This document shows, one piece after another, positions 1 to 22,926 of a DNA stretch of 64,000 nt. Under the pieces are notes generated by a model. It was not told the origin of the DNA, made no database searches, and saw only the letters and a list, made by a program, of their open reading frames with translations. The stretch covers positions 1 through 64,000 of the forward strand of contig JAVZHQ010000002.1 in assembly GCA_038998335.1 (NCBI GenBank), read 5' to 3'. Origin of the DNA: Candidatus Aenigmatarchaeota archaeon. GTDB lineage: Archaea; Aenigmatarchaeota; Aenigmatarchaeia; CG10238-14; SCSR01. Both the position numbers and the translations under genes were made by a program. Each line of letters begins with the position of its first letter. The first letter of the stretch is position 1.

Positions 1-127
1 AAAATCCGAAGTTGTTGTAAGTAGAATTGTCAAATACTCCTGAAGAGTTGTACCAGTCGAAGCTCCAGTAACCTACTAATGAATAGTTCCAGTCTATGAA
101 GGCAGAAGTGTTTGAAGCATCGGTTAT
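1..127. repeat. Exact intragenic direct repeat, copy of 3778-3904 (start of LamG module)
   Basis: 1-127 is identical to 3778-3904; offset 3777 nt is in frame; probably continues beyond the window edge. Confidence 0.95.
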
Positions 128-3100
128 AGTTGTATTTAAATAAACCCAGTTGTTTGAAGTTATTGAATTGTTAGGAGGAGTTGGTAATTCCCAAATTATC
201 GTTGGTGAAGTTATGTCTCCTTTATTGCTCAACGGGAGATAGTCTGTGTTGTTTCCAGTCTGTCCGGGGTCTATTATATAAGGAGAATCACAGAATCCGT
301 CTTTATTATCATCATCACAGGTGTCTGAATAGCCGTTATTAGTAAAATTTGTCCAGTAGTTGCCTCCTATTTCATTTCCAGCAGAGTAGATTCTTTGTCC
401 TGATTGCTTAGTAGTATTCCAGTAGTTGGAATAAATTGTTCCTTCAAAGTAGAAGTTGTTGGTGTTATTGAATAGGTTGTTGTAGATTTTGTTAGGAATA
501 CTTCCAGAGTATCCCACACGAATGCCCCGGCTATTATCTTGAATTATTGAACTAGTTATAGTATTGCCGTTAGAAAAATAAAACCTTATTCCATCGTTGT
601 TGGAAACTAAAGTTACATTTGTTATGTTATTGTTATCAGAAGAACGAATCATGATGCCAGTTCCAAAATTTTTTATATAAATATTTGTTATATTCGAATA
701 ATCGGTTCTCATTAGAACAATCCCGTTATTTTTTGTGCCACTCCTAACCATAGTTATATTCCTAATTATCGAATAGTCTGCGTTGCAGAGAAATATTTCA
801 GAAACATTGTTATACCAGTTCTCTATCACTACTGTAGAATTGTAGTAAACTATAGGTTTATCATCAGTCCCGTTCAAATTTGTTACTATATGATTGCATC
901 TTGAATCAATATTTTCCGCTAAAACATAAAAGTCATACAACCAACCTCCATGCGTATCGAATGCTTTTGAGTCAGTTAAAATATTGTTTACAGAATTCCA
1001 AAAATGTATACCAAAGCTGGAACAAGAGGAAACTGAGACATTAGTTATCTTAGTATTACTGGCGTATATGATCTCTATTCCAACAGAAAAATCGGTAATA
1101 ATGCAGTTCTTGATTTCATTATTAATTGCTGCGCTATCATTCAGAAGCACTCCATAATCAAGATGATTTCCGTCTATAGCGAAACCTTGACAGTCTAGAG
1201 TTGAGTTTTGAATAACCCAAGAAGAGGAATTTCCAAACTGTATCGCTGTTCCTGCCAAATCGCTAGAAGAAGTGTTCAAGCAGTAATAAGTGTTGTTCTG
1301 GGTGATGTTATAAGGTAAAGAGTTTATATAAACTTCACAAGGAGTTTCTTGAACTTTTATTTCTCTTTCTCCTGATAGGTAAATAGTAAAGCTCAATGAG
1401 CCAGAGGAGTCTGTTTTTAAAGTGTAAGTTAATACTGAGTTGTTGTAGATTAAATAGTATTTGTTTGGGTTTAGTCCAGAAATGTTGTAGAAAGCTGTTA
1501 TTGCTGATGAAGAAGAATCGTTCCATATCATTAAGGATTTTTCCCAGGAAATAAGCTTTCTTGTTAGAGTTGAAGAAGAAGAAACAGAAGTTTTTAGCCA
1601 GAGTTCTATATCTGTTCTATTATTATAATTGAACCAATTTGATGACGGTGCTTCAAAGTAAATTTTTCTTGGAGCAGTGAAGTTTGTGTTAGTAAAGTTG
1701 TTGGTGGAACCTGACAAAGCTAGGTAATAATCGTACTCGGTGTTTGACGCTATTGAAGTGTCTGTTATGCCAATAGAGCTAGATGTTATTAATTCGACAC
1801 CGTAATAATTAGAATTAAAGGTTGAGTTGATGATTTGATTGTTAGAACTATCTTCAAGATAAACGCCATGAAAATTAAAAGAAGAGTTTATTCTACTGAA
1901 GTTCGAATAATCTGTAAGAATAACTAACATACCGTTATTTTGCTTTGATGGAGAAGCATCAATTGTTATGTTTGTTATATTCGAGTAATCTGCGTTACAA
2001 AGAATTAATTCTGAAAGAACTTCATTGCTAAACGTTACTGAAGAGTTAAAGTATTTTATTGGTTTGTTACCTGAACCTAATACATTTTCTAGTTCGTTAT
2101 TACACTCGTTAAGAAAGTATGCATAAAGGTTAAAATCGTATAATTCGTTTTCAGACATAGTAGAATTGATGATTTGATTGTTAGAGGCAGAATCGAGCCA
2201 AAACCCTGTGTCCAAGTTATTGTTGAAAGTGGAATTTATAATTCTGTTAGAAGAGCTAGAAATAAGGAACATTCCGTAATAATTAAAGTTAAAAGTTGAG
2301 TTGATGATTTGATTGTTAGAACCAGCTTCAAGATAAATACCCTCGCCACCATTAAAATTGACGATTGAGTTGATGATGTAATTGTTAGAACTGTAATCAT
2401 GATAGATACCTTCAGAATTGTTGTTGAAAACAGAATTGATAATGTAGTTGTTGGAGCTTTTGTAGAGATAAAAACCAGCAAATACATTGAACGAAAAATT
2501 AGAATTTATTATTGAGTTATTATTTGCGTATTCTAAGTGGATACCATCATCCCAACCGGTAACTATGCAATTTTTTATTGTTATGTTTGTGTTTTGGGAA
2601 GAGCTTCTTGAAATGTAGATTCCGTAAGTATCAGAAGTGCTTGTTCCGTCTATCGTATAGCCTTGACAGTCTAAGGTAATGTTGTTAGCTGAGATGTTAA
2701 TGCAAGCTATAGAAGAAGAGTCTAGGATGCTTTGGTTTAGACAATAATAGGTATTAGGTTGGTTTAGGTCTGAGCAGGAAGAAATGTATTGCTGGCAAGG
2801 AGAAGACGAAGTTGTAGTATAGCTGAATACTTCGGTTTCGTTCCAGTTGTTGGAAGTATCGTTAGCGTATACTTTCCATTTTATTAAGCAACCTACAGTT
2901 TCGTTTATAACTACAGTAAAGTTACTCCAAGCTTGAGTTCCACTTAAAGACATTTCACTTATGTTTTGAAATTCTCCTGTACAGTTGTCAAAGGAAAAAA
3001 TAGCATGGCTTAGTCCATAATTGTCTTGCCAGAATAGGTTGTGGCTAACAGCAGTTCCTGCTATAGTTGAATTAGTTGAGTTTAAGGAATAGAAAGGAGG

Positions 3101-6100
3101 AGTTGTGTCTACGGTTACAGTTCTTGTTTCTGTTTTGTTTGCGTTTCCCGCTGCATCTATAGCATAAGCGTAGTATTGATAAGTTCCATCAGATAAATTA
3201 GTGAAGTTTCTGTACAAGCGATATAAGCCTGAATTGTAAGAAGCGTTAACTTCTTCCGGAGCTAAAGCACGACTCCAGATTCTTACTTCATCTATGATAC
3301 CGTTGAAAGTTCTATCTAGACCATCCCTGTTTCCTATATAAAGAGGCTCTGTATTAACTGGAACCGAAGTTGTTCTGGTTGCGGTTCCTACTAAACTACC
3401 GTTAACATAAAACTTTATTTGTGCAGATGCAAGATATCTGTTAAAAGTTACAACAACATGTTGCCATCTATTCAGTTCTATGGTATAGTTTGGTGGGGAG
3501 TATGCAGAATTTCCTATACCTACTCTAAGTGTTTGTACATTTGTCGAAGTGTTAGAAACATAAAAAGCATAAGCGGAGGAATAATTCTTATCGATTATCC
3601 TTCCGTAATTGTTTTCTCCCCAGCCTGTTGGATAAATCCATGCCTCAAAAGTGAACTCATCTGTCAAATCCAGATTGCTGCTATGTGATATGTTCACCCT
3701 GTCATCAACACCGTCAAATCGTAAGCCTTTTCCGTATTGTCCAGTAGTTATGTTATCTATTCCTAAGCCGCCTTGGAAAAATCCGAAGTTGTTGTAAGTA
3801 GAATTGTCAAATACTCCTGAAGAGTTGTACCAGTCGAAGCTCCAGTAACCTACTAATGAATAGTTCCAGTCTATGAAGGCAGAAGTGTTTGAAGCATCGG
3901 TTATGGTAGTATTTACGTAAACAAAGTTGTTTTGTACGATGCTGTTATTGGCAGGGGTTGGAGGGACAAATTGAATGAGAGGAGGTTCTAGGTCTGCTGT
4001 AGTGTTTACTGTTATTTCTCTTATGTCTGTTGTTATCGTTAAGTTGAAAGTAAGGTTTCCTGTAGAGGTAGCGTTTTGAGTATAAACTAATTCAGAGCCG
4101 TTGTAGATTTTGTATTCTTGGTTTGGGTATAAACCGTTGATTTCATAGTAAGCTGTTATTGTTGTCGAGGCATTTTCATTCCATTTGATTTCTTGTTGAG
4201 TCCATTTAATTAAACTTCTGTTTATAGCTGCTGCTGAAGAGATTCTTGTTTTTAGCCATAGCTCAATATCAGTTCTGTTGTTGTAGTTGAACCAGCTTGT
4301 ATTATCATAAAAATAGATTCTTCTTGGAGCAGTGAAGTTTGTGTTAGTAAAGTTGTTGGTTGAGGAAGCACCCCTCAAATAAAAATCATAAGAACTTCCT
4401 CTACCTAAAGCAAGGTAAGAACCTCCTGTTATGTTGTTCCGAGAGGAGGAGTAAAGATAGATGCCATGAGAAGAGGTAGAGTGAGACGTAGTTACTACAT
4501 TTGAAGTTATAGTGTTGTAATTGGAGCTGGAGTAAAGATAGATGCCATGGCTGTACGAATTGGTTGTTGAGATAGTGTTTGAAGCTAGGATGTTTCTAGA
4601 GCTGGAGTAAAGATAGATGCCATAACCATATGAATTGGTTGTTGAGATAGTATTGTTAGTGACATTGTTCAAAATTGAATTAGAATACAAAAATATACCT
4701 CGACCTCTGCTTGTAGCTACTGAACTGTTTTCTATCTTGCTGTAGCTAACATTGAAGAAATTAAATCCGTCGTTAGACATAGTAATGTTATTTATAGTAA
4801 CATTTTTAGACCAGGCAAATATTATTTGGCCATAAGTGTTTGAATAGTCTTGGTTTTCCATTTTAGCATTATTGCAATTGAAGCAGTAATATATGGGTAA
4901 ACCTTCTGCTAGATTAGTTTGGTCTATGCTATGGTTGAAATGGTTCACTATTGTTCCTTCGACGATAAGACTATTCGCTTTACTTGTGTTTAATTTATTG
5001 AATGTTAAAGTAGCGTTGGTGCTTGAATCTAGATAAACGCCATAACTAGGAGCACCAGAAGTTGTTATTATATTTGAAGTTATGATGTTATTGGAAGAAG
5101 AGTTAATATACATTCCGCCGCAATTGCTACCACTAGTCGATATTGTATTTAAACTAATGTTATTATCAAAACCAAAATTTAGAGAAATTCCATCACTAGA
5201 ACTGCCAGAAGTTATTATACTATTGTTAAAAATCAAGCTATTGTTCATTCTTGAACCATAAATAGCATGAGAACTAGAAAGAGTAGAGCTTCCTTGAACG
5301 ATATTACAGCTCTTTATTACTATGTTGTTGTAACCTGTAATGTTAATCGCATATCCTGTGGAAGATTGGGAGTAGTTAATCCAATAGCCTTGGCAGTCTA
5401 AGGTAATACTATTAGCTGTAATATTTATACATGTGCCTGGGGAGCTTATGTTATTGCTTAGACAGTAGTATTTGTTAGTTTGGTCTAAATTTGAACAAGA
5501 AGATATGTAAAAATCGCAGATAGGTGGGTCGGTAGAATTGCTTATCCAAAATTCATAAATGGAATTTGTACTTTGGGTATAAGTTTTATTCATAAGAACA
5601 ATAACATACTCATATCCCCAGTAAGTGTTGTTACCCTCTTGAACAATAAAATCCGTACCATTAGTCAGCTTTTGCCACGTATTACCTGCTGTATAGTTTT
5701 TAAACCAAACATGAGACGCTACTTCTACGGCATTTTTTAAGTTTTTTATGTAGAAAACAGGTTGGATTCTACCATAGCTTTCCAGAGTAAAGTTGAAGTT
5801 TACTATGTTAGAAGATGGTGTAAAGTTATATGTACCTTCTATTTTATTAAACCCTAAATAAGTTCCTGTTTCCATTGTTATCGAAGCTGGAAAGTGAAAA
5901 TCAACAAAAGTTTTATTCAACTCGTTATTAACGGTATGATTAAGCTCCAAACCTCCACCACCAGAATTTCCAAACCAAGTCATCCACCCCCAACTAACAT
6001 TATTCTGATATAAATAGGAACTTCCAACTATGTTTATGGCTGTATGATTATAACCGCCTATATTCTCAAAAGAGAAGCGTGGAGGGGTTGTTACATAAAA

Positions 6101-8551
6101 TCCAGAAACAGTACCAGCTGTAGCTGCTGTTTTCGTATGCGATGTATTCCAAAGAAAAGCGTAAGAAGAGTTGAAAGAAACCGTTAACGTATATCCTCCT
6201 GCAGGATAAAGACTTCCGCTATTGTTTAAAATTCCTTGTAAATTTTCTACAGCACCGTAGAATGTAAAGTTATTTGGTAAGGTAGACGAAATACTCCTAA
6301 AATAAAGAGGTCTGAATCCATAACTCCCTGTGCTTATAGCCGTAAAATTACCCTCGACGTAATATTTAACAAAGTACCTACTAGGATAAAGATAATAGTC
6401 TATGGTAAAGTTAAAGCATAGAACCTCTGGTGTTGATACACAAATAGTGGACTTATTTTCAAATCTCAACTCAACCCTTGCTGGACCGTTCTCAACGACC
6501 CAAGAAGTTGAAGGATGATCTGCCAAATCAACAGTTGTTGATTGGTCTGTAGAGTTACGAATGTTAATAAATCTGTTAGAAGCGATGACTTGAGGGAAAG
6601 CTAAATTGTCTATGTAAATGGTCCTTTCTATCCCATAACTGGAGCTCGTAGTTCTTCCTATCTCGACTATATAATTGTCGGCCGTAACATTATAAACACT
6701 ACCAACACTTACAGAAACTGTGCTTGAGTTAAGCCCCCACTTCAAGCTTAAATTTCTTGGTAGTTTTAAAGCATATTTCTTGAAATCTAATGAGAAATAA
6801 AACTTATCTTCCCCTGCATTTTTTTTAATTCTCAAATCCTTCATAATACAAATGTTAGAACTGCATAAAAAACCAAAATCTTTTTCAAACTTTTTTATAT
6901 ACTCCTTATCTAAACCTTCTACTTGAAAGTTACCCGTCAGTATTTCTTTTTCTGAGCTAGAATTGAACGTAAGGTAACCAGCTATTCTATCCTTACTACA
7001 CTCTATTATTTCTATGTAAAAATCTTCATCAGCTTCTACAAGTTCACAGATAGGAATTTCAACTTCCTCGACAGATAATAAAGACTTAGTATAACTTTTT
7101 TCTGTTGCGCTTATATTTTCTATAATTTCAAAAGTTCCATAAAAACTATTTGAATTGTAGACAAGCGTTATTATATAAATACCAGGAATGTCAAAACCAT
7201 TTTTTATTTCTAAGTCAAATTCTCCTTTTTCATCTGTAACACCGAATAAACGAAAAACTTCCTCATCATAAGGATTGACCACGAATAACTCGAAACTTTT
7301 GTTCCTGCTTCCTCTTATCTTCACTTTTACGCTTTCATTAACCAAATAAACTTTCTTATCAGTTATAATCTCAAATTTTACATCTTCATTCACACTCTCC
7401 GCACTAGCATTCATTTCTTCTATACTTATGTTTTCAATTCTTTCTAACACTTCAAAAATTGTTAATTCTTCTTTTTCTCCGTACTTTAAAATTGCAGAAT
7501 AATTTCCTTTTTCAAAAAGCTTGAAATAAATTTCGCTTAAGCCAGAAGAATTGGTTTGACCTAAAAAGCTAAAAACTGGTAATCCTTCTTTAAAAACGCT
7601 TAAATCAAATTTTTGGTCAGGAGTGCCGCTGACTATTAAAGTAATGTTTTCATCCAAATAGTAAAATTCTTTTGAAATTAGCTCAAGCTTTATTTCTTCC
7701 TTTTCTTCAAGAACTTCAAAGCTCGCTTCAGAACTTAAAATTCTTGCAGAATAATTTCCAGAAGGAAAAGTTTTGTTAAAAATGTAAAATCCTTTTTCGT
7801 CAGTGGTTAGGGTAAAATTCTCAGTAATTTCTTGACCAAAAATTTCTAGAGTAAACTCCTTATTTGCTTCTCCTTTAACAAAAATGCTAACTGTTTCGTT
7901 AGCTTTAAAAACGCTTTTCTCCAAGGTTATATTAAAAGGAATTTCCAAAACTTCAAAGTTTAAAGATGCTTCTAATTCTCCGGAAGATGCTACAATAGTG
8001 TAATTTCCTTGATTAAGGTTAAAAGAAAGAGAAAAAGTTCCGTTCAAGTCAGTAGAAACTATTTGATTTGTTAAGCTATCAGAAGAAATTAGAGTTAAGG
8101 ATAAGCTTTGATTTTCTATGGAAGTTTTATCAGTTAAACCAAAGAAACCAGAAATTTTTATTAGCTCGTTAGTGAAGAATTTTTGTTTTTCTAATTCTAT
8201 TTCTAGCCTATAACCATTAAGCTCAGTGAAGTTAAAAATCTTGTCGACACTTCCCTTTATTGGAATGGTATAATGGAAAAGGAAGATAAGGATAATCATT
8301 AAAGCAAGAATAGCTAAGGAAAGCTTTGCTATTGACTTTTTCCCTAGGAAAAAACCTTTTTTCTGTTTTTTTAAGGAGCATAGAGCTACTTTTCCTATTC
8401 TTCTTTGGTCTATTATTCCTGCTTTTGCTAAGGCAAAAATGTATTTTGAAGTAGTGTTGCGATGAATATTAAGCTCTTTTGAAATGTTTGTTATTGTTAA
8501 GCCTTCAGGATGTTTCGAAAGAATATCAACAATCCTTTCCTCAACGCTCAT
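2..8551 (-). CDS. Giant membrane-anchored surface protein (>=2850 aa, 3' end outside window): N-terminal winged-HTH, TM helix, Ig/MG2-like repeats, three NosD/pectin-lyase beta-helix blocks, LamG domains
   Basis: Manual translation from ATG 8551: MSVEERIVDILSKHPEGLTITNISKELNIHRNTTSKYIFALAKAGIIDQRRIGKV..., then LSLAILALMIILIFLFHYTI. The same frame reads ...LVGYWSFDWYNSSGVFDNSTYNNFGF at the window edge. The ORF track has no closed ORF in this frame, consistent with no internal stop; I did not check every codon. Confidence 0.88.
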   Translation of the reverse strand, partial: MSVEERIVDILSKHPEGLTITNISKELNIHRNTTSKYIFALAKAGIIDQRRIGKVALCSLKKQKKGFFLGKKSIAKLSLAILALMIILIFLFHYTIPIKGSVDKIFNFTELNGYRLEIELEKQKFFTNELIKISGFFGLTDKTSIENQSLSLTLISSDSLTNQIVSTDLNGTFSLSFNLNQGNYTIVASSGELEASLNFEVLEIPFNITLEKSVFKANETVSIFVKGEANKEFTLEIFGQEITENFTLTTDEKGFYIFNKTFPSGNYSARILSSEASFEVLEEKEEIKLELISKEFYYLDENITLIVSGTPDQKFDLSVFKEGLPVFSFLGQTNSSGLSEIYFKLFEKGNYSAILKYGEKEELTIFEVLERIENISIEEMNASAESVNEDVKFEIITDKKVYLVNESVKVKIRGSRNKSFELFVVNPYDEEVFRLFGVTDEKGEFDLEIKNGFDIPGIYIITLVYNSNSFYGTFEIIENISATEKSYTKSLLSVEEVEIPICELVEADEDFYIEIIECSKDRIAGYLTFNSSSEKEILTGNFQVEGLDKEYIKKFEKDFGFLCSSNICIMKDLRIKKNAGEDKFYFSLDFKKYALKLPRNLSLKWGLNSSTVSVSVGSVYNVTADNYIVEIGRTTSSSYGIERTIYIDNLAFPQVIASNRFINIRNSTDQSTTVDLADHPSTSWVVENGPARVELRFENKSTICVSTPEVLCFNFTIDYYLYPSRYFVKYYVEGNFTAISTGSYGFRPLYFRSISSTLPNNFTFYGAVENLQGILNNSGSLYPAGGYTLTVSFNSSYAFLWNTSHTKTAATAGTVSGFYVTTPPRFSFENIGGYNHTAINIVGSSYLYQNNVSWGWMTWFGNSGGGGLELNHTVNNELNKTFVDFHFPASITMETGTYLGFNKIEGTYNFTPSSNIVNFNFTLESYGRIQPVFYIKNLKNAVEVASHVWFKNYTAGNTWQKLTNGTDFIVQEGNNTYWGYEYVIVLMNKTYTQSTNSIYEFWISNSTDPPICDFYISSCSNLDQTNKYYCLSNNISSPGTCINITANSITLDCQGYWINYSQSSTGYAINITGYNNIVIKSCNIVQGSSTLSSSHAIYGSRMNNSLIFNNSIITSGSSSDGISLNFGFDNNISLNTISTSGSNCGGMYINSSSNNIITSNIITTSGAPSYGVYLDSSTNATLTFNKLNTSKANSLIVEGTIVNHFNHSIDQTNLAEGLPIYYCFNCNNAKMENQDYSNTYGQIIFAWSKNVTINNITMSNDGFNFFNVSYSKIENSSVATSRGRGIFLYSNSILNNVTNNTISTTNSYGYGIYLYSSSRNILASNTISTTNSYSHGIYLYSSSNYNTITSNVVTTSHSTSSHGIYLYSSSRNNITGGSYLALGRGSSYDFYLRGASSTNNFTNTNFTAPRRIYFYDNTSWFNYNNRTDIELWLKTRISSAAAINRSLIKWTQQEIKWNENASTTITAYYEINGLYPNQEYKIYNGSELVYTQNATSTGNLTFNLTITTDIREITVNTTADLEPPLIQFVPPTPANNSIVQNNFVYVNTTITDASNTSAFIDWNYSLVGYWSFDWYNSSGVFDNSTYNNFGFFQGGLGIDNITTGQYGKGLRFDGVDDRVNISHSSNLDLTDEFTFEAWIYPTGWGENNYGRIIDKNYSSAYAFYVSNTSTNVQTLRVGIGNSAYSPPNYTIELNRWQHVVVTFNRYLASAQIKFYVNGSLVGTATRTTSVPVNTEPLYIGNRDGLDRTFNGIIDEVRIWSRALAPEEVNASYNSGLYRLYRNFTNLSDGTYQYYAYAIDAAGNANKTETRTVTVDTTPPFYSLNSTNSTIAGTAVSHNLFWQDNYGLSHAIFSFDNCTGEFQNISEMSLSGTQAWSNFTVVINETVGCLIKWKVYANDTSNNWNETEVFSYTTTSSSPCQQYISSCSDLNQPNTYYCLNQSILDSSSIACINISANNITLDCQGYTIDGTSTSDTYGIYISRSSSQNTNITIKNCIVTGWDDGIHLEYANNNSIINSNFSFNVFAGFYLYKSSNNYIINSVFNNNSEGIYHDYSSNNYIINSIVNFNGGEGIYLEAGSNNQIINSTFNFNYYGMFLISSSSNRIINSTFNNNLDTGFWLDSASNNQIINSTMSENELYDFNLYAYFLNECNNELENVLGSGNKPIKYFNSSVTFSNEVLSELILCNADYSNITNITIDASPSKQNNGMLVILTDYSNFSRINSSFNFHGVYLEDSSNNQIINSTFNSNYYGVELITSSSIGITDTSIASNTEYDYYLALSGSTNNFTNTNFTAPRKIYFEAPSSNWFNYNNRTDIELWLKTSVSSSSTLTRKLISWEKSLMIWNDSSSSAITAFYNISGLNPNKYYLIYNNSVLTYTLKTDSSGSLSFTIYLSGEREIKVQETPCEVYINSLPYNITQNNTYYCLNTSSSDLAGTAIQFGNSSSWVIQNSTLDCQGFAIDGNHLDYGVLLNDSAAINNEIKNCIITDFSVGIEIIYASNTKITNVSVSSCSSFGIHFWNSVNNILTDSKAFDTHGGWLYDFYVLAENIDSRCNHIVTNLNGTDDKPIVYYNSTVVIENWYNNVSEIFLCNADYSIIRNITMVRSGTKNNGIVLMRTDYSNITNIYIKNFGTGIMIRSSDNNNITNVTLVSNNDGIRFYFSNGNTITSSIIQDNSRGIRVGYSGSIPNKIYNNLFNNTNNFYFEGTIYSNYWNTTKQSGQRIYSAGNEIGGNYWTNFTNNGYSDTCDDDNKDGFCDSPYIIDPGQTGNNTDYLPLSNKGDITSPTIIWELPTPPNNSITSNNWVYLNTTITDASNTSAFIDWNYSLVGYWSFDWYNSSGVFDNSTYNNFGF
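3778..3904. repeat. Exact intragenic direct repeat, copy of 1-127
   Basis: Direct sequence identity. Confidence 0.95.
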
Positions 8552-8567
8552 AGCAATCAAAACTTAC

Positions 8568-8586
8568 GTTGTGCATAATGCACAAC
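8568..8586. promoter_or_regulatory. Perfect 9-1-9 inverted repeat GTTGTGCAT-A-ATGCACAAC, candidate operator
   Basis: Lies between a minus-strand TTTTTAAA TATA-like box (8594-8587) and the ATG at 8551 of the HTH-bearing giant gene. Confidence 0.65.
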
Positions 8587-8821
8587 TTTAAAAAATTAAG
8601 AGTGTCGATGTAGTTAAGGCTTAAAGAAATAAAAGAAGTTTAAAAAGAACCCTTTAAAAATCGCTTCTTAGAGCGAAAATTCCTTTAAAATTTGAGCTTT
8701 TTTGTAAAAGACAAAAAAGTTATTAGGTTAAAGAGAAAAAAAGCCTAAATGTCGATTTCCGACTTTAAAATCAAAAAAGAATTTTAAAACAAACTTAAGA
8801 TTAAGTGTCGGTCGACAGTTT

Positions 8822-10099
8822 CTAAATTTGAAGAAGCCATTTCCATAAAGGTTTGAAAACAATTTTTTTGTTGTTGATTTTTATTTCGTCCTCGTAATCC
8901 CATGTTATTATTAAAAGATTTTTACATTTGAGTAAGGAAGAAGCTTTTAATAAAGATTTAATTTCTCTTTTTTCTATTTCATCTTTTGAAGAAGAATAAG
9001 TTACTTGGATTAATTGTTTTATTTTCAAACCTTCTTTTAGAACGAAATCTACTTCATTCTGCTGATAGTCTTTAAAATAGAAAATTTCAAGTAAAGGAAT
9101 ATCGTTCGTTTTTCTTAATAATTCTAAAAACACAACATTTTCCATTCTCTTTCCCATATCTCTTTCTATACTTAATGCAGATGCCAAACCCAAATCGCAA
9201 ATATAAACCTTTCTTCCCAAAGACTTTCTTTCATAAACACTTTTGCTAAACTTCTCCACAAAAAACACACTCAAGCTCTCGGGCAATTTTTTTGCATAAT
9301 CGTAAACAACATTCTTCAAATTTTTCCCTATTCTTGAAGAAACAAAATTTGATATTTTATTTAGACTTATCTCTTTTGAAAAATTTTGTAGAATGAATTC
9401 AAAAATCAATTTTGCAACATAAGTGTTTACTATTTCAAACCTTTCTACAAAATCCTTCTGGAAAATTGTGTCAAAATATTCTCTCAAAATTTTCTCTCTT
9501 TTTTCAGGATAAATCAATATCTCAGGGTAACTTCCCCACTCTAAAAACTCTTCTAGGAGCTTAATTGTTTTCACTTTTTCAGAGATTGAAAGGAATTTTT
9601 TCCTTTCCACGTTTTTAAAATCAAGGTACTCCCTAAAGCTGAGAGGTAAAAAAAGATAGGTTATGCTCCTTCCTCTTAGTTGAGTTGCAATCTCTTTGCT
9701 TAAAAGTTTTGAAGAAGAGCCTGAAATCATCAAGTAATAACCGCTATCTAATAAACTTCTAACCAAGCTTTCCCAATTGTTTAACCTTTGTATTTCATCG
9801 ATCAACACTTTTTCAACCTTAGTATTGAAGTATTCCTCAAAAACAGATATTATTTCAAAAAAGTCTTTGTGTGTAATTTCTCTAAAAGCCGAGTGCTCTA
9901 AGTCGATATAAATTATGTTCTTATTCTTCCTTAGAACATTAAGCAAAAAATAAGTTTTGCCTGACCTTCTTGGACCGATTATCGATATTACCTTATTTTT
10001 AAGAAAATCAAATTTTAATTCTCTGTCCAAAATCTTTTCGGTTTTGATTCTTTCTACCAACCTAGTAAAAAATTGGAGTACGAATTCTTTTTCAAACAT
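8822..10099 (-). CDS. AAA+ ATPase, COG1373 / AAA_14 + DUF4143 type
   Basis: Walker A GPRRSGKT, Walker B LIDEIQ, SGSSS, LRGR; C-terminal EVDFV...IQVT motif. Confidence 0.9.
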   Translation of the reverse strand: MFEKEFVLQFFTRLVERIKTEKILDRELKFDFLKNKVISIIGPRRSGKTYFLLNVLRKNKNIIYIDLEHSAFREITHKDFFEIISVFEEYFNTKVEKVLIDEIQRLNNWESLVRSLLDSGYYLMISGSSSKLLSKEIATQLRGRSITYLFLPLSFREYLDFKNVERKKFLSISEKVKTIKLLEEFLEWGSYPEILIYPEKREKILREYFDTIFQKDFVERFEIVNTYVAKLIFEFILQNFSKEISLNKISNFVSSRIGKNLKNVVYDYAKKLPESLSVFFVEKFSKSVYERKSLGRKVYICDLGLASALSIERDMGKRMENVVFLELLRKTNDIPLLEIFYFKDYQQNEVDFVLKEGLKIKQLIQVTYSSSKDEIEKREIKSLLKASSLLKCKNLLIITWDYEDEIKINNKKIVFKPLWKWLLQI

Positions 10100-18678: not shown

Positions 18679-21600
18679 TTACTTTGGTGGTAGTTTTTGA
18701 AAAGCTATTTTTATTTCTTTATCTTCAAACTTTAAGACATCTTGGAATTCGCCTTTAAGCTTTCCTAAGGAAACCTTGCTTGCTCCCACTTCTTTCTTAA
18801 GTTTTTTAGAATAACTTTTAATAACTTCCAAAGTTTTTTCATCACTTTCTAAGGTTAGAGCAATTCTTTCCTCAACTTTAAAGCCATGTTTCTTCCTCAT
18901 CTCCTGTATTTTTCTTGTTAACTCTTTCAGCAAAGCTTCTTCCATAAGCTTTTCATCAAGCTTAGGGTTAACAAAAACTTTCCCGAAATCAAAGCTTGCT
19001 TCACAATAACCTTTTGGTTCTTCCTCTGCTATTTTAACAGTCTTTGAGTTGCAAATAAAAGCTAGAATTTTTTCCAGCCTTTTAAGTGCAGATAAAACTT
19101 TTTCTTCTTTTGAGAAAACTAAAACTTCAGAAACAGGCCATCTCAACTTAATCCTTGCTTTTTGCCTTGCAGCACTACAAGCCTCAAAGATTTTTTTCGC
19201 AACTTCCATCTCTTCTTCAAGTTTTTTATCTATAAGTTTTTTGTTTGCTTTTGGCCAAAGGCAAAGATGAACAGATTCTTCCCCTCCTTTTAAAGGTTTA
19301 ACTATTTCTTGATAAACTTCTTCTGCGAAGAAAGGAACGAAAGGAGCAAGAAGCTTGGCAAGATTTTCTGTTATAGTTAGCAAAGTGAAGAAAGCTGCCT
19401 TCTTATCCTTTCCCTTATACTCAGGCCAGACCCTATCTCTTATCAACTTAATGTACCATCGTGAAAAATCGTTTATTATAAAATCAACTATTTCTTGCGC
19501 TGCTTTGAAAGAGTGATAATTCCAAAAGTTTTTCTCACAACTTTCTATCAGAGAATTAAGTCTTGAGATTATCCACTTATCTTCTTCCTCCAGTTTTCTC
19601 ACTTTTTCATAACTTTTCACGTAAGTCTTAACAAAGTTGAAAACGTTTTTTACTATCATAAAAGATTTTGCTATTTCCTCAACATCTTGCCATTTGAAGT
19701 AATAATCTTCCCAAGGTGGAGAAAGCAAGTAATATAGCCTTAAAACATCCCTTCCATACTTTTCTATAACCTCTTCAGTTGTTACTATGTTTCCTATACT
19801 TTTAGACATTTTTTGGCCATGCACATCTAAAACAAAACCATGGAACAAAACACTCTTGAAAGAAGCTTTACCAAAAGTCATTAAGCTTGTTATCATCAAA
19901 GAATTCCACCAGCCTCTAATCTGATCAGGCCCTTCAAGGATAAAATCAGCTGGAAACATTTTCTCAAAAGGTTCTTTTTTCTCTGGATAACCTAAGGAAG
20001 CCCAAGGAGCTACCCCAGAATCGAACCAAACATCCAGCACGTCAGAAACTCTTCTCATCTTTTTCCCACATTTTTCACAATCCAAAAGAATTTCGTCTAT
20101 ATAAGGCTTGTGCAAATCCTCTGGAACATAAGGTAATTCTTTCCTTGAGCCTACAACTCTAATGTTTTCACAATTCTCACAAACCCATATTGGTAGAGGA
20201 ATTCCCCAGTACCTTTGCCTTGAGATTGGCCAATCTCCCAGACTTTCTAACCAATTTCTAAACCTTTGTTTTGCCCATTCAGGAACCCATTTTATTTTCT
20301 CATTTTCTTTCAAAAGCTTTTCTCTTATAGCAGTAACTTTAAAGAACCACTGAGGAACCGAAATTAAGAGTAAAGGAGATTCACATCTCCAGCAAACCGG
20401 ATAATCGTGCTGGATCGTTTCCTCGTGAAGAAGTAAACCTTTTTCTCTAAGTTCCTGAATTATTAATTTATCCGCATCTTTAACAAACATCCCAGAATAT
20501 TTCCCACAACTCTCGTCAAAAGTTCCATCTATTTTCACAGGAGAAACTATGGGTAAACCTGTCTCTAAACCTACTTTATAATCTTCCTCTCCATGACCTG
20601 GAGCTGTATGAACCAAACCTGTACCTTCTTCCAGACTAACAAACTGCTCAGAAAGGACAACCCTATGAGCATTCTTCAGATTTTGCTGAAACTTAAACTC
20701 CTCAAGAAAGGGATGTTCATACCTTAAGTTTTCCATATCCTTTCCACTTCTTACGTCCAGGATTTCGTATTTTTCTATGCCAACCTTTCTCATTACACTT
20801 TCTAACAACTGCTTAGCCAAAATCAGAATTTCACCGTTAATTTTAACTCTTACATATTCACCCTTTGGGTTAGCCATTATCCCTGTATTTGCTGGCAACG
20901 TCCATGGCGTAGTAGTAAAACAAACCAAAAATAAGTTGGGGTCTTCTTTTGTTCTAAACTTTACATAAATAGCAGGATCTCTAATCTTTGTGTATTCTAT
21001 CTCATTATAAGCAACTACCGTTTCACAATTATGCGTAATAAAACCGTTTACGATGAAGTTATGAGTTCCTCTAACGTTTAAGTCGGCTACTTCTTTTAGA
21101 CCACTAAACTCTATCTTATCGATTTTCTCCCATATTAATCCGTTTTTAATTCCATTATTTTTAACGTAAATTTCAAATTTTGGTAAAGATTCTCTGTTTA
21201 GTTTTTTTCTAAGTTTTGTTTTCAAGTAAGAAAGTACATAAGAAGAAATTTCTTCCCTTTTTTTGCAATAGGAGTATCCAATACTCTCTAAAAATTTTAC
21301 TGTGTTCAAAATACTACAACTTATTCTTCCTGTAACTATAGCTTTTTCTTTTCCGTTAACATTTTTGTAAGTCTTTTTAAAAGGCCTTATCATTACACCA
21401 AGCTCTTTAAGCAACTTATAAATAGATTTCACAAACTTTACAGCAGAAGCTTCTAAATTTCTGTTTTTTTCTACTCTAAAAATCAACTCCTTAAAATATT
21501 TTTCTGTTTCTCTTAAACTTGGTTTACTTAACTCAGCACCAAAATATCCACGCAAAAACTCTGTCTTAAAAGCTTTTAATTCCTTCTTTTTTAATACATT

Positions 21601-22926
21601 TGGAATGTCGAAATCGATTTCCCACTTTTTACCGGAAGGCATACCTAAGGTCAACAATAAAATCCCAAAGGAAGAGGAATAACAGTACATTTCGATACTC
21701 TGGCCTTTTACTTCTTTCTCATTTATTTTGGATTTCTTTTCTCTGCTTTTAATTTTACTTGATTTAAAACCTAATTTCTTCAGGTCTTTTTTAATCTTCT
21801 TGAGATCGTCTTTTTCTTCGGCCGAGAAAAACACTATAATCTCTGGGAAGTTTCTTTTTTTCTTTTTTCTTATTATCAGAGAGCCGTCCCCAAACGAATA
21901 TCCTAAAATTCTAAAAAGAATTCTAGTTTTTTCATCCTTCTCATACAACGGTAAAAGCCTTTTACATTCAAGCTCGTGTAAAACCCTCTTTATAATACCA
22001 TTCACTCTCTTAGAATTTCCATACTTTTCGTTAAGTTTCTCAATAGTCTTTATAACTTCTTTTTTTGTTAAAATAACTTTATTTGAGTTAGTGTTTTCTT
22101 TAAAAACTGGAAGATGGACTACTGCAACTTCATCACCCACTTTCAAATGCTTAAGTTCTCTCCAACCACTCTTGGTTAAAAATGGGTGATCTAAGGTTGC
22201 CTCGATGTTTAAACCACTTTGAGTTGTAACTCTAAAGGTCTTGTCCTTTACTTCTAGATAACCATCTATACACGACTCCTTAAAATCAAAATTTTTAAGG
22301 TCTAAAGTTACGACTTTTTCATTTTCCCAACAGTTTTTAAGTTCATCCATACTTTTCCAACTATAATTAGTAAAAACTATAGAATCTTTCGTAATACACC
22401 TTGGACAAACATGAACAGGATAGCTCCCTTTGTATAGTAAACCTTTTTCAAAAGCTTTCTTAAACGTAAACCATGCCCCTTCTATATAATCGTTAGTCAA
22501 AGTTAAGTAAGGATTTTCCCAGTCCATCCAGACTCCTAAATTTTTGAACTGGTTGCTCATTGTATCTATAAATTGAGTTGCAAATTTCCTGCATTCTTTT
22601 ATGAAATTCTCAACGCCAAACTTTTCTATATCCTTCTTTGATTTAAAACCAAGCTGCTTTTCAACTTTGTTCTCTATTGGTACGCCATGGCAATCATAGC
22701 CTGGCTGGTCCCAAGTATTAAAACCTTGCATCCTGAAAAACCTTAAAAAGCAATCTTTTATAACTTTGTTAAATGCTGTGCCAACATGGATTGAACCAGT
22801 AGCATAAGGGGGCCCGTCCAAGAAAAAGAATTTTTTACCTTCTTTCCTCATTTCCTTAAGCTTTTCATAAACCTTTTTCTCTTCCCAAAATTTTAGTATT
22901 TGCTCCTCTTTTTCTGAATCTTTCAT
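18679..22926 (-). CDS. ileS: Isoleucyl-tRNA synthetase with intein
   Basis: DGPPYATGSIHVG, DWPISRQRYWG, KMSKS; 457-aa insertion in the CPR/C zinc knuckle. Confidence 0.97.
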   Translation of the reverse strand: MKDSEKEEQILKFWEEKKVYEKLKEMRKEGKKFFFLDGPPYATGSIHVGTAFNKVIKDCFLRFFRMQGFNTWDQPGYDCHGVPIENKVEKQLGFKSKKDIEKFGVENFIKECRKFATQFIDTMSNQFKNLGVWMDWENPYLTLTNDYIEGAWFTFKKAFEKGLLYKGSYPVHVCPRCITKDSIVFTNYSWKSMDELKNCWENEKVVTLDLKNFDFKESCIDGYLEVKDKTFRVTTQSGLNIEATLDHPFLTKSGWRELKHLKVGDEVAVVHLPVFKENTNSNKVILTKKEVIKTIEKLNEKYGNSKRVNGIIKRVLHELECKRLLPLYEKDEKTRILFRILGYSFGDGSLIIRKKKKRNFPEIIVFFSAEEKDDLKKIKKDLKKLGFKSSKIKSREKKSKINEKEVKGQSIEMYCYSSSFGILLLTLGMPSGKKWEIDFDIPNVLKKKELKAFKTEFLRGYFGAELSKPSLRETEKYFKELIFRVEKNRNLEASAVKFVKSIYKLLKELGVMIRPFKKTYKNVNGKEKAIVTGRISCSILNTVKFLESIGYSYCKKREEISSYVLSYLKTKLRKKLNRESLPKFEIYVKNNGIKNGLIWEKIDKIEFSGLKEVADLNVRGTHNFIVNGFITHNCETVVAYNEIEYTKIRDPAIYVKFRTKEDPNLFLVCFTTTPWTLPANTGIMANPKGEYVRVKINGEILILAKQLLESVMRKVGIEKYEILDVRSGKDMENLRYEHPFLEEFKFQQNLKNAHRVVLSEQFVSLEEGTGLVHTAPGHGEEDYKVGLETGLPIVSPVKIDGTFDESCGKYSGMFVKDADKLIIQELREKGLLLHEETIQHDYPVCWRCESPLLLISVPQWFFKVTAIREKLLKENEKIKWVPEWAKQRFRNWLESLGDWPISRQRYWGIPLPIWVCENCENIRVVGSRKELPYVPEDLHKPYIDEILLDCEKCGKKMRRVSDVLDVWFDSGVAPWASLGYPEKKEPFEKMFPADFILEGPDQIRGWWNSLMITSLMTFGKASFKSVLFHGFVLDVHGQKMSKSIGNIVTTEEVIEKYGRDVLRLYYLLSPPWEDYYFKWQDVEEIAKSFMIVKNVFNFVKTYVKSYEKVRKLEEEDKWIISRLNSLIESCEKNFWNYHSFKAAQEIVDFIINDFSRWYIKLIRDRVWPEYKGKDKKAAFFTLLTITENLAKLLAPFVPFFAEEVYQEIVKPLKGGEESVHLCLWPKANKKLIDKKLEEEMEVAKKIFEACSAARQKARIKLRWPVSEVLVFSKEEKVLSALKRLEKILAFICNSKTVKIAEEEPKGYCEASFDFGKVFVNPKLDEKLMEEALLKELTRKIQEMRKKHGFKVEERIALTLESDEKTLEVIKSYSKKLKKEVGASKVSLGKLKGEFQDVLKFEDKEIKIAFQKLPPK
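21028..22398 (-). mobile_element. Intein with LAGLIDADG homing endonuclease domain
   Basis: Begins CITKDS (aa 177), block B ATLDHPF, LAGLIDADG-like LGYSFGDG and FLRGYFGAE, ends NFIVNGFITHN before extein Cys. Confidence 0.95.

Follow-up and report, generated by a model that had tools for sequence, protein, structure and literature searches.

A giant surface protein of a Candidatus Aenigmatarchaeota archaeon begins with a winged helix-turn-helix domain and may regulate its own gene

The stretch of DNA analyzed here, referred to as the window, is the first 64 kb (64,000 nucleotides, nt) of contig JAVZHQ010000002.1 (contig C2) of a Candidatus Aenigmatarchaeota archaeon (assembly GCA_038998335.1), whose genome comprises 1,009,365 bp in 9 contigs with 33% G+C. 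At its start lies a gene on the minus strand (2..8551) for a giant surface protein that begins with a domain of the winged helix-turn-helix (wHTH) type. We consider that this gene probably encodes a membrane-tethered autoregulator, built onto the anchor of the giant surface protein. Two copies of the wHTH would bind a dyad, TGTGCA-N3-TGCACA, between a TATA-like box and the start codon, and the bound domain would repress its own costly gene to a degree set by the product already present in the membrane. On the same dyad a free paralogue of 69 amino acids (aa) would also act. Tethering would make transcription of this gene, which is at least 8.5 kb and probably about 19.5 kb long, track the amount of product in the membrane. 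Repression in archaea usually takes place between the TATA box and the start, and in cells this small the nucleoid presumably always lies close to the membrane. That the domain binds DNA, that it does so as a dimer and that it represses are what we infer.

The wHTH domain, its membrane anchor and its family

The frame was open throughout 2..8560 of the minus strand and left contig C2 at base 2. Its first ATG lay at 8551, giving a product of 2,850 aa whose 3' coding end is cut off by the contig start. An earlier note, made from the letters of the DNA alone, had read this frame as a wHTH regulator fused through one transmembrane (TM) helix to a giant adhesin-like ectodomain, and the fusion proved genuine. 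Contigs of four runs (X1, X2, X3 and X6) from three hot-spring metagenome studies were aligned to positions 7600-9000. A single X1 contig covered 7600-8864 with 40 substitutions and zero gaps, and the X2, X3 and X6 contigs were gap-free across the linker and membrane helix; no frameshift separated the HTH from the TM helix at 8250-8400. The only indel among the differences listed was an additional A at 8589, which is intergenic. The strain differences listed for the wHTH were synonymous changes at R50 and R51 together with D48E, and the linker showed G66V. In-frame ATG, GTG or TTG codons over aa 1-130 were present only at aa 1 and at aa 85, within the TM helix; the ectodomain and anchor can therefore be translated only together with the N-terminal domain. 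The fusion of the wHTH to the giant ectodomain is not an assembly error. That a small wHTH gene and a giant gene were joined by an assembly or sequencing error would be in keeping with split versions elsewhere, which are separated merely by a stop codon and a few bases, but it is far-fetched, given contigs from four runs and three studies without an indel over 7600-8551, the absence of an in-frame start between aa 1 and the TM helix, two further database proteins (1,741 and 1,519 aa) with the same N-terminal arrangement at 99% and 98% identity, and at least 62 fused homologues.

The cytoplasmic wHTH comprises aa 1-60 (8372..8551, minus strand), with the recognition helix HRNTTSKY and the wing RRIGKVALC, and was assigned using Pfam, AlphaFold2, Foldseek and a PDB profile. 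When aa 1-120 were scanned alone, the Pfam cut-offs were exceeded for HTH_IclR (28.1 bits; cut-off 22) and HTH_24 (25.0 bits; cut-off 21.9). In the whole-protein scan HTH_IclR scored 22.3 bits, and HTH_24, at 19.6, was below its cut-off; the NCBIfam matches were also wHTH families, all sub-threshold. The AlphaFold2 model built from a 104-row alignment showed helices at 3-13, 20-27 and 31-43 and strands at 47-52 and 55-60 that form a beta-hairpin wing, with a block-mean predicted local distance difference test (pLDDT) score of 96-98 across aa 1-60, then a low-confidence linker (aa 61-72) and a helix (73-94). A single-sequence AlphaFold2 model, which drew the wing as a low-confidence helix, was superseded by the alignment-based one. 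Foldseek returned the repressors ArsR, MarR, CzrA, ZitR and PcaV at a root-mean-square deviation of 1-2 Å over 57-68 columns, with ArsR 6j05, Rv1404 2nyx and PcaV 4fht as the top fold matches, and the closest solved structure by sequence was the DNA-binding domain of the IclR-type repressor TtgV (2xrn, E 3e-5). The nearest ESM Atlas clusters were small wHTH proteins, mostly of Aenigmatarchaeota and other DPANN, at best scores of 0.81-0.83, which fall under the 0.9 line and serve as leads only. In the same 104-row alignment the near-invariant positions were I7, L11, G17, R31, T33, K36, Y37, L41, R50, G53 and L57, which make up the hydrophobic core, the recognition helix and the wing; R31, T33, K36, Y37, R50 and G53 lie on the last two. 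The earlier assignment of aa 1-60 to a wHTH was thus borne out by the Pfam scores, the high-confidence fold and the Foldseek neighbours, and the domain looks like a working sequence-specific DNA binder.

The wHTH is followed by a basic linker (aa 61-72, KKQKKGFFLGKK; 8336..8371, minus strand), in which G66 is polymorphic among strains, and by a single TM helix or signal anchor (aa 73-94; 8270..8335, minus strand), placed N-in by hydropathy, AlphaFold2 and the asymmetry of charges and sequons in homologues. Hydropathy gave one membrane helix, aa 74-92, right after KKQKKGFFLGKK, in agreement with the model and with the earlier prediction of one TM helix after a basic linker. In 62 fused homologues the 15 aa flanking the helix contained on average 4.1 K+R before it and 0.15 after it, and NxS/T sequons numbered 5.7 per 100 aa after the helix versus 0.16 before. 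Because of this asymmetry the wHTH is placed in the cytoplasm and the remainder outside. The window protein had 139 sequons over 2,756 ectodomain residues; it is a predicted type-II (N-in) membrane protein, with a large C-terminal part that would be heavily N-glycosylated. An A-Q-N-x-T/S-like motif, which is an N-glycosylation sequon, stood directly at the outer helix edge in 33 of the 62 fused homologues.

Relatives were collected with HMMER, using aa 1-110 against 1.84 billion representatives. This gave 338 matches at E <= 1e-3, of which the best 150 were classified with one near-identical copy excluded, and the homologue counts (149 classified, 62 fused) rest on these best 150 of 338. The 149 relatives comprised 56 free proteins (<=125 aa, no TM helix), 49 proteins of 140-599 aa and 13 of >=600 aa with a wHTH plus one helix, and 31 others, among them proteins with tandem wHTHs, short fragments, and proteins of about 200 aa in which the wHTH occupies 136-200. 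Free members measured 64-95 aa, typically about 70 aa. The ectodomains of large fusions (14 proteins: the 13 large ones and P0103) contained MG2, Laminin_G_3, CBM_4_9, beta-propellers, FG-GAP, Big_1 and Hint domains, and mid-sized fusions ended in one Ig-like domain, namely NPCBM_assoc (8/49), DUF11 (5/49), A2M (4/49) or CARDB (2/49). By profile search the family was present in 119 of the 151 genomes of the phylum that were sampled; among the 89 high-quality ones it was present in 68. At all nine loci read at the N-terminus the frame began with a wHTH and one helix, the frames being 14,526, 14,236, 3,670, 2,543, 2,452, 1,596, 1,407, 1,139 and 839 aa long. The search for wHTH-TM-large ectodomain fusions that the earlier note had suggested was thus productive, with many fused homologues of up to about 14,500 aa, and the predicted design is common in the phylum, not a one-off.

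The same note had considered whether homologues keep the HTH as a separate gene. Many are fused, but split versions with a free wHTH gene also exist. A strong wHTH match was present in 4 of 44 metagenome loci (L081, L083, L084 and L102). L083 and L102 encoded two wHTH proteins in succession, a TM protein of 220-226 aa and then a TM protein of 3,096 or 4,775 aa, with stops and starts that overlap or abut, and L083 had a further wHTH after the giant gene; in L081 and L084 one free wHTH immediately preceded the large gene. In five genomes of the same family no orthologue of the fused gene was found, only free or other fused family members. On the simplest account, the members of the wHTH family would be small, dedicated autoregulators with a genetic tie to surface-protein operons, and fusion of a wHTH to a signal anchor would have happened repeatedly.

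Other arrangements were seen in the family. A second giant locus of the window genome (C1:570290-607467, first part L078) encodes a free 85-aa wHTH, a ParA-like gene, a 141-aa TM protein that matches the family's ectodomain, and an 11,409-aa protein. Two palindromes of the TTGATATTC-N-ATATCAA type lie upstream of the 85-aa wHTH gene, and the N-terminus of the 11,409-aa protein reads K-S-E-V-G-Q-S-Q followed by a hydrophobic stretch. About ten relatives (P0103, P0015, P0041, P0061, P0063, P0065, P0075, P0109, P0123 and P0137) carry an extra domain of about 135 aa N-terminal to the wHTH; in P0103 (2,200 aa) the extra domain and wHTH are followed by a TM helix and a large ectodomain. P0004, P0040, P0042 and P0133 have 5-8 tandem copies of a related HTH, and P0009 (1,164 aa) consists of about 20 exact repeats of a 55-aa unit, which may be an assembly artefact.

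A candidate operator in the promoter

A perfect 19-bp dyad, GTTGTGCAT-T-ATGCACAAC (8568..8586), lies 17-35 nt upstream of the ATG and is the candidate wHTH operator. It abuts a TATA-like box, TTTTTTAAA (8587..8595, minus strand; by eye), so that it is positioned between this box and the start codon, and no second site of this kind exists in the 1.0-Mb genome.

Related dyads were looked for in a promoter survey of 69 loci (L006 and L009-L076), of which 11 were dropped, ten having no motif by regular expression and one no start. The pattern TGTRCR-N3-4-YGYACA occurred within -120..+30 of the start, as chosen by heuristic, in 16 of 31 fused genes versus none of 28 free or short ones. Three further fused genes carried a one-mismatch form, TGTACA-N4-TGTATA (by eye). 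Across eight larger loci (73,311 nt) the motif was present five times, and the promoter windows of five of the eight carried it; the five occurrences are presumably these five promoter-window sites. The strict pattern TTGTRCA-N0-6-TGYACAA gave 27 sites in 25 of 151 genomes, versus 10 for the backwards-read control. Ten of the 27 preceded a family wHTH domain by <=80 nt, as shown for eight by coordinates and for two by a hidden Markov model search of the flanks; for the other 17 no wHTH was found within 450 nt, and many lay inside long frames.

The half-site appeared to follow the recognition helix. TGTACA accompanied HRHT in 7/7 cases and TGTGCA accompanied HRNT in 3/3, the window included, a pairing that is a hint and not a statistical test because the genomes are related. 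Other subfamilies had other palindromes in the same place: CAATATTGT-N3-ACAATATTG was present in 3/3 loci of one genus, and ATTAATGAT-like dyads accompanied NRMT helices. A search upstream of the free wHTH genes of L081, L083, L084 and L102 turned up no TGTRCR dyad; these genes had other palindromes or a GCATTATGC core (L084, by eye). In L138 (G112:C25) and L141 (G027:C15) an HRNT wHTH is fused to a soluble C-terminal domain (…GIGISDLQDGYNAAVSAAKQAV…) and has no membrane helix; a TTGTGCA…TGCACAA dyad lies ahead of each.

The 270-nt intergenic region also contained three TGTCGA/TCGACA boxes, starting at 8603, 8750 and 8812 (8603..8817), versus 0.15 per kb genome-wide. Only one cluster in the genome was denser, with five boxes in 600 nt ahead of the operon of the second giant gene, the 11,409-aa locus, whose promoter region also has a TAACATTAATGTTA dyad. 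A second regulator may bind at the boxes of the window, or they may be promoter elements; the TGTCGA hexamer recurs beside TATA-like boxes in homologous promoters of other genomes (by eye). The next gene upstream, encoded on the strand of the giant gene, is one for a 425-aa P-loop ATPase-like protein with GPRRSGKT (8822-10099, minus strand), where contig depth jumps as for a multi-copy or widely shared gene.

Several points weigh against tethered autoregulation. The survey that ties the dyad to fused genes kept 58 loci, and its 59 gene starts rest on the heuristic. In 15 of the 31 fused loci no dyad was found by regular expression, and some of these carry different palindromes. Relatedness among the genomes means that the dyad and family counts overstate significance. 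Binding at the dyad could be the work of the free paralogue alone and not of the tethered domain. The linker has about 12 residues, and the promoter would therefore need to lie at the membrane; the existence of free and split forms means that tethering is not required for the function of the family. No RNA run was listed for positions 7600-9000. Finally, no orthologue of the fused gene was found in the same-genus genome G096 (91% complete), and the gene is therefore strain-variable or hard to assemble.

The ectodomain and the probable rest of the gene

The part of the ectodomain within the window measures at least 2,750 aa, and all its features are on the minus strand. It starts with an Ig-like repeat region (aa 95-470; 7142..8269), in which four Ig/MG2-like units had been noted earlier; the region gave Ig-like matches, but all were sub-threshold (CarboxypepD_reg 27.5 versus a cut-off of 32.3, MG2 24.2 versus 32.8). 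A stretch without a Pfam match follows (aa 471-1000; 5552..7141). The beta-helix part consists of block 1 (4352..5551; NosD 6.2e-19, Beta_helix 9.6e-16), block 2 (1652..2851; Beta_helix 7.2e-25, NosD 2.8e-20) and block 3 (NosD 9.3e-24), the last of which lies in 2..1651 together with the opening residues of a second LamG repeat, where the contig ends. Between blocks 1 and 2 lies a LamG domain followed by a Big_13-like Ig domain (3245..3715; Laminin_G_3, 2.8e-33). Whole-protein scores were above the cut-offs for NosD (172.8 bits), Beta_helix (115.9) and Laminin_G_3 (110.4). Three beta-helix blocks were therefore present at about the places proposed for them before, and of the LamG domains claimed, one was above cut-off and the second, below position 130, was represented by its first residues only. 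Pfam scans found no protease or nuclease domain in the window protein.

Over the final 155 nt at the contig end the DNA repeats, at 96%, positions 3778-3932, where the LamG domain starts, and this repeat accounts for the assembly break at the start of contig C2. The only other contig end with a giant open frame was that of C1, which starts mid-LamG and encodes 3,551 aa (C1:3-10861, locus L077) with 13 NosD/Beta_helix stretches, two Laminin_G_3 domains and a MAM-like domain; no C-terminal membrane helix was found in this frame. The ends of C2 and C1 fit together as halves of a single LamG domain from which about 60-100 aa are missing, and it is quite likely that the two frames are one gene for a protein of about 6,500 aa. 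The sequence at the start of C1 recurs at 99% in another gene (C1:92161-92378), and a public metagenome scan with the last 300 aa as query gave 44 loci, the best at 67% identity and none bridging the contig end. With repeats at both ends and no bridging contig, the join stays at the level of inference.

The free paralogue is a 69-aa wHTH gene (C1:10652-10861) overlapping the stop of the giant frame on C1. Its product shares 40 of 63 residues (63%) with the N-terminus of the window protein, and its recognition helix is HRNTVSKY where the window protein has HRNTTSKY. Many of the DNA differences between the two are at third codon positions (by eye).

Elsewhere in the window, a 1,415-aa isoleucyl-tRNA-synthetase-like frame (18679-22926, minus strand) contains a large insertion, intein-like by eye, whose first residue is the C that follows ...VCPR and whose end reads ...THN|C.

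Alternative readings and known systems

The best placed of the other explanations, though a rather unlikely one, is that the wHTH is made with the giant protein but regulates in soluble form after cleavage at or within the membrane. Either a prepilin-peptidase-type enzyme, cutting at the cytoplasmic helix edge, or signal peptidase and then an intramembrane protease would free it, yielding one regulator per inserted protein. The motif [GSA]-Q-x-[QKRE] was present at the cytoplasmic helix edge in 35 of the 62 fused homologues, 25 having G at -1 and 15 having K at -2, versus 3 of 1,945 open reading frames when the same test was run on the window genome. The genome has one Peptidase_A24 gene (C1:309871-310227), the free members of 64-95 aa indicate that the domain works untethered, and IPIKG-S after the helix of the window protein is a possible signal-peptidase site (by eye). 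As outlined in PMC3387779, archaeal class III cleavage is governed by positions -2, -1 and +1, with a positive charge at -2 and G or A at -1 ahead of a hydrophobic stretch. However, the window protein reads K-K-S | I-A-K at the equivalent edge, with no Q at +1 and with S at -1, and the only K-G in its linker, at G66, is the polymorphic G66V position. The leader would be 70-95 aa, whereas known class III leaders are short, and the hydrophobic stretch of about 20 residues is anchor-like. Class III (type IV pilin-like) cleavage of the window protein itself was considered and rejected: the leader would be about 72 aa and K-K-S | I-A-K has no G or A at -1. A slightly more doubtful extension of release is that the wHTH is an oversized leader, clipped after insertion, so that one repressor is freed per exported molecule. 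For many relatives this clipping would be at a prepilin-peptidase-like K-G|Q-x-Q site, and the cell would then count finished surface proteins, not transcripts.

It is equally doubtful that the ectodomain detects attachment to a host or surface and that clustering or pulling alters DNA binding by the wHTH, as in ToxR or CadC. The topology is that of transmembrane transcription regulators, the lectin-like LamG and beta-helix modules are typical of adhesins, and the dyad requires two wHTH copies, so that clustering driven by the ectodomain could matter. On the other hand, the ectodomains attached to this module are very diverse (CBM_4_9, MG2, beta-propellers, FG-GAP, Hint and LamG), which better fits a generic anchor or feedback module, and a single helix with a 12-aa linker shows no evident means of passing on a signal, such as a HAMP domain. 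The data are explained just as well by simple feedback at the level of the product.

A non-regulatory role, in which the wHTH serves as a structural or topogenic plug in the cytoplasm, ties the nucleoid to the membrane or acts as an adaptor that binds protein, and the dyad is the site of some other factor, is improbable. Winged helices are also protein-binding modules, the free paralogue could be the sole binder of the dyad, and the short linker disfavours reach to DNA; but conservation is focused on the recognition helix and wing, the half-site changes with the recognition helix in all ten cases, and the dyad is tied to fused and not to free genes.

Several known systems resemble the protein in part. 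Giant surface proteins are the main candidates for host attachment in DPANN, and each costs a large share of the resources of a 1-Mb genome. Among them are the 'SPEARE' proteins of Nanohaloarchaeota, which carry cytoplasmic ATPase or other domains and are not known to have an N-terminal DNA-binding domain. The window protein has in common with them a very large, glycosylated, membrane-anchored ectodomain in a presumed symbiont with a small genome, and the same genome supplies the 11,409-aa example. No description of a wHTH or other DNA-binding domain on giant archaeal surface proteins was found in the literature outside subscription journals and supplementary files.

Proteolytically released membrane-tethered transcription factors include SREBP and Notch in eukaryotes and the anti-sigma/regulated intramembrane proteolysis (RIP) systems of bacteria. 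They would be how a release model works, but the window protein lacks the helix-edge motif of 35 of its 62 relatives. If the wHTH were released, this would be a new way of coupling secretion to transcription.

With the MarR, ArsR and IclR repressors the window wHTH shares the three-helix core and wing and a dyad, here the candidate operator, overlapping the promoter, and signs of autoregulation are seen in its family. The window wHTH differs in being only about 60 aa long, without dimerisation helices or a ligand-binding domain, and in being membrane-tethered. The locus offers a small testable handle, namely a 60-aa domain, a 19-bp dyad, and covariation of H/N in the recognition helix with A/G in the half-site.

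Transmembrane transcription regulators (TTRs) have been defined by a predicted DNA-binding domain and at least one TM region in one protein; they include bacterial ToxR, TcpP and CadC, and single-pass forms are the commonest, at 56% in the survey (Demey et al. 2023, PMC10269533). That survey counts 1,384 archaeal TTRs; its main text does not use the word DPANN, and its supplementary lists might include such proteins. By its predicted domains the window protein is a TTR in this sense (PMC10269533). It has the cytoplasmic DNA-binding domain, one TM helix and outside domain that the earlier note had likened to ToxR and CadC, and this part of the likeness stood. The Pfam matches of its N-terminus are of IclR, MarR and ArsR types, and the 21 families listed for this part at E up to 0.1 did not include Trans_reg_C, the OmpR type; since its wHTH is not of OmpR type, the protein is not a member of the ToxR/CadC family. 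Among archaea, ArnR and ArnR1 of Sulfolobus are reportedly TTRs. The window family differs from TTRs in carrying on the outside, instead of a small sensor, a surface protein whose size ranges from 2,750 to more than 14,000 aa, and in that the candidate operator of the window protein lies in its own promoter. If the wHTH acts from the membrane, TTRs would extend to an adhesin tens of times larger than the characterised sensors known to us.

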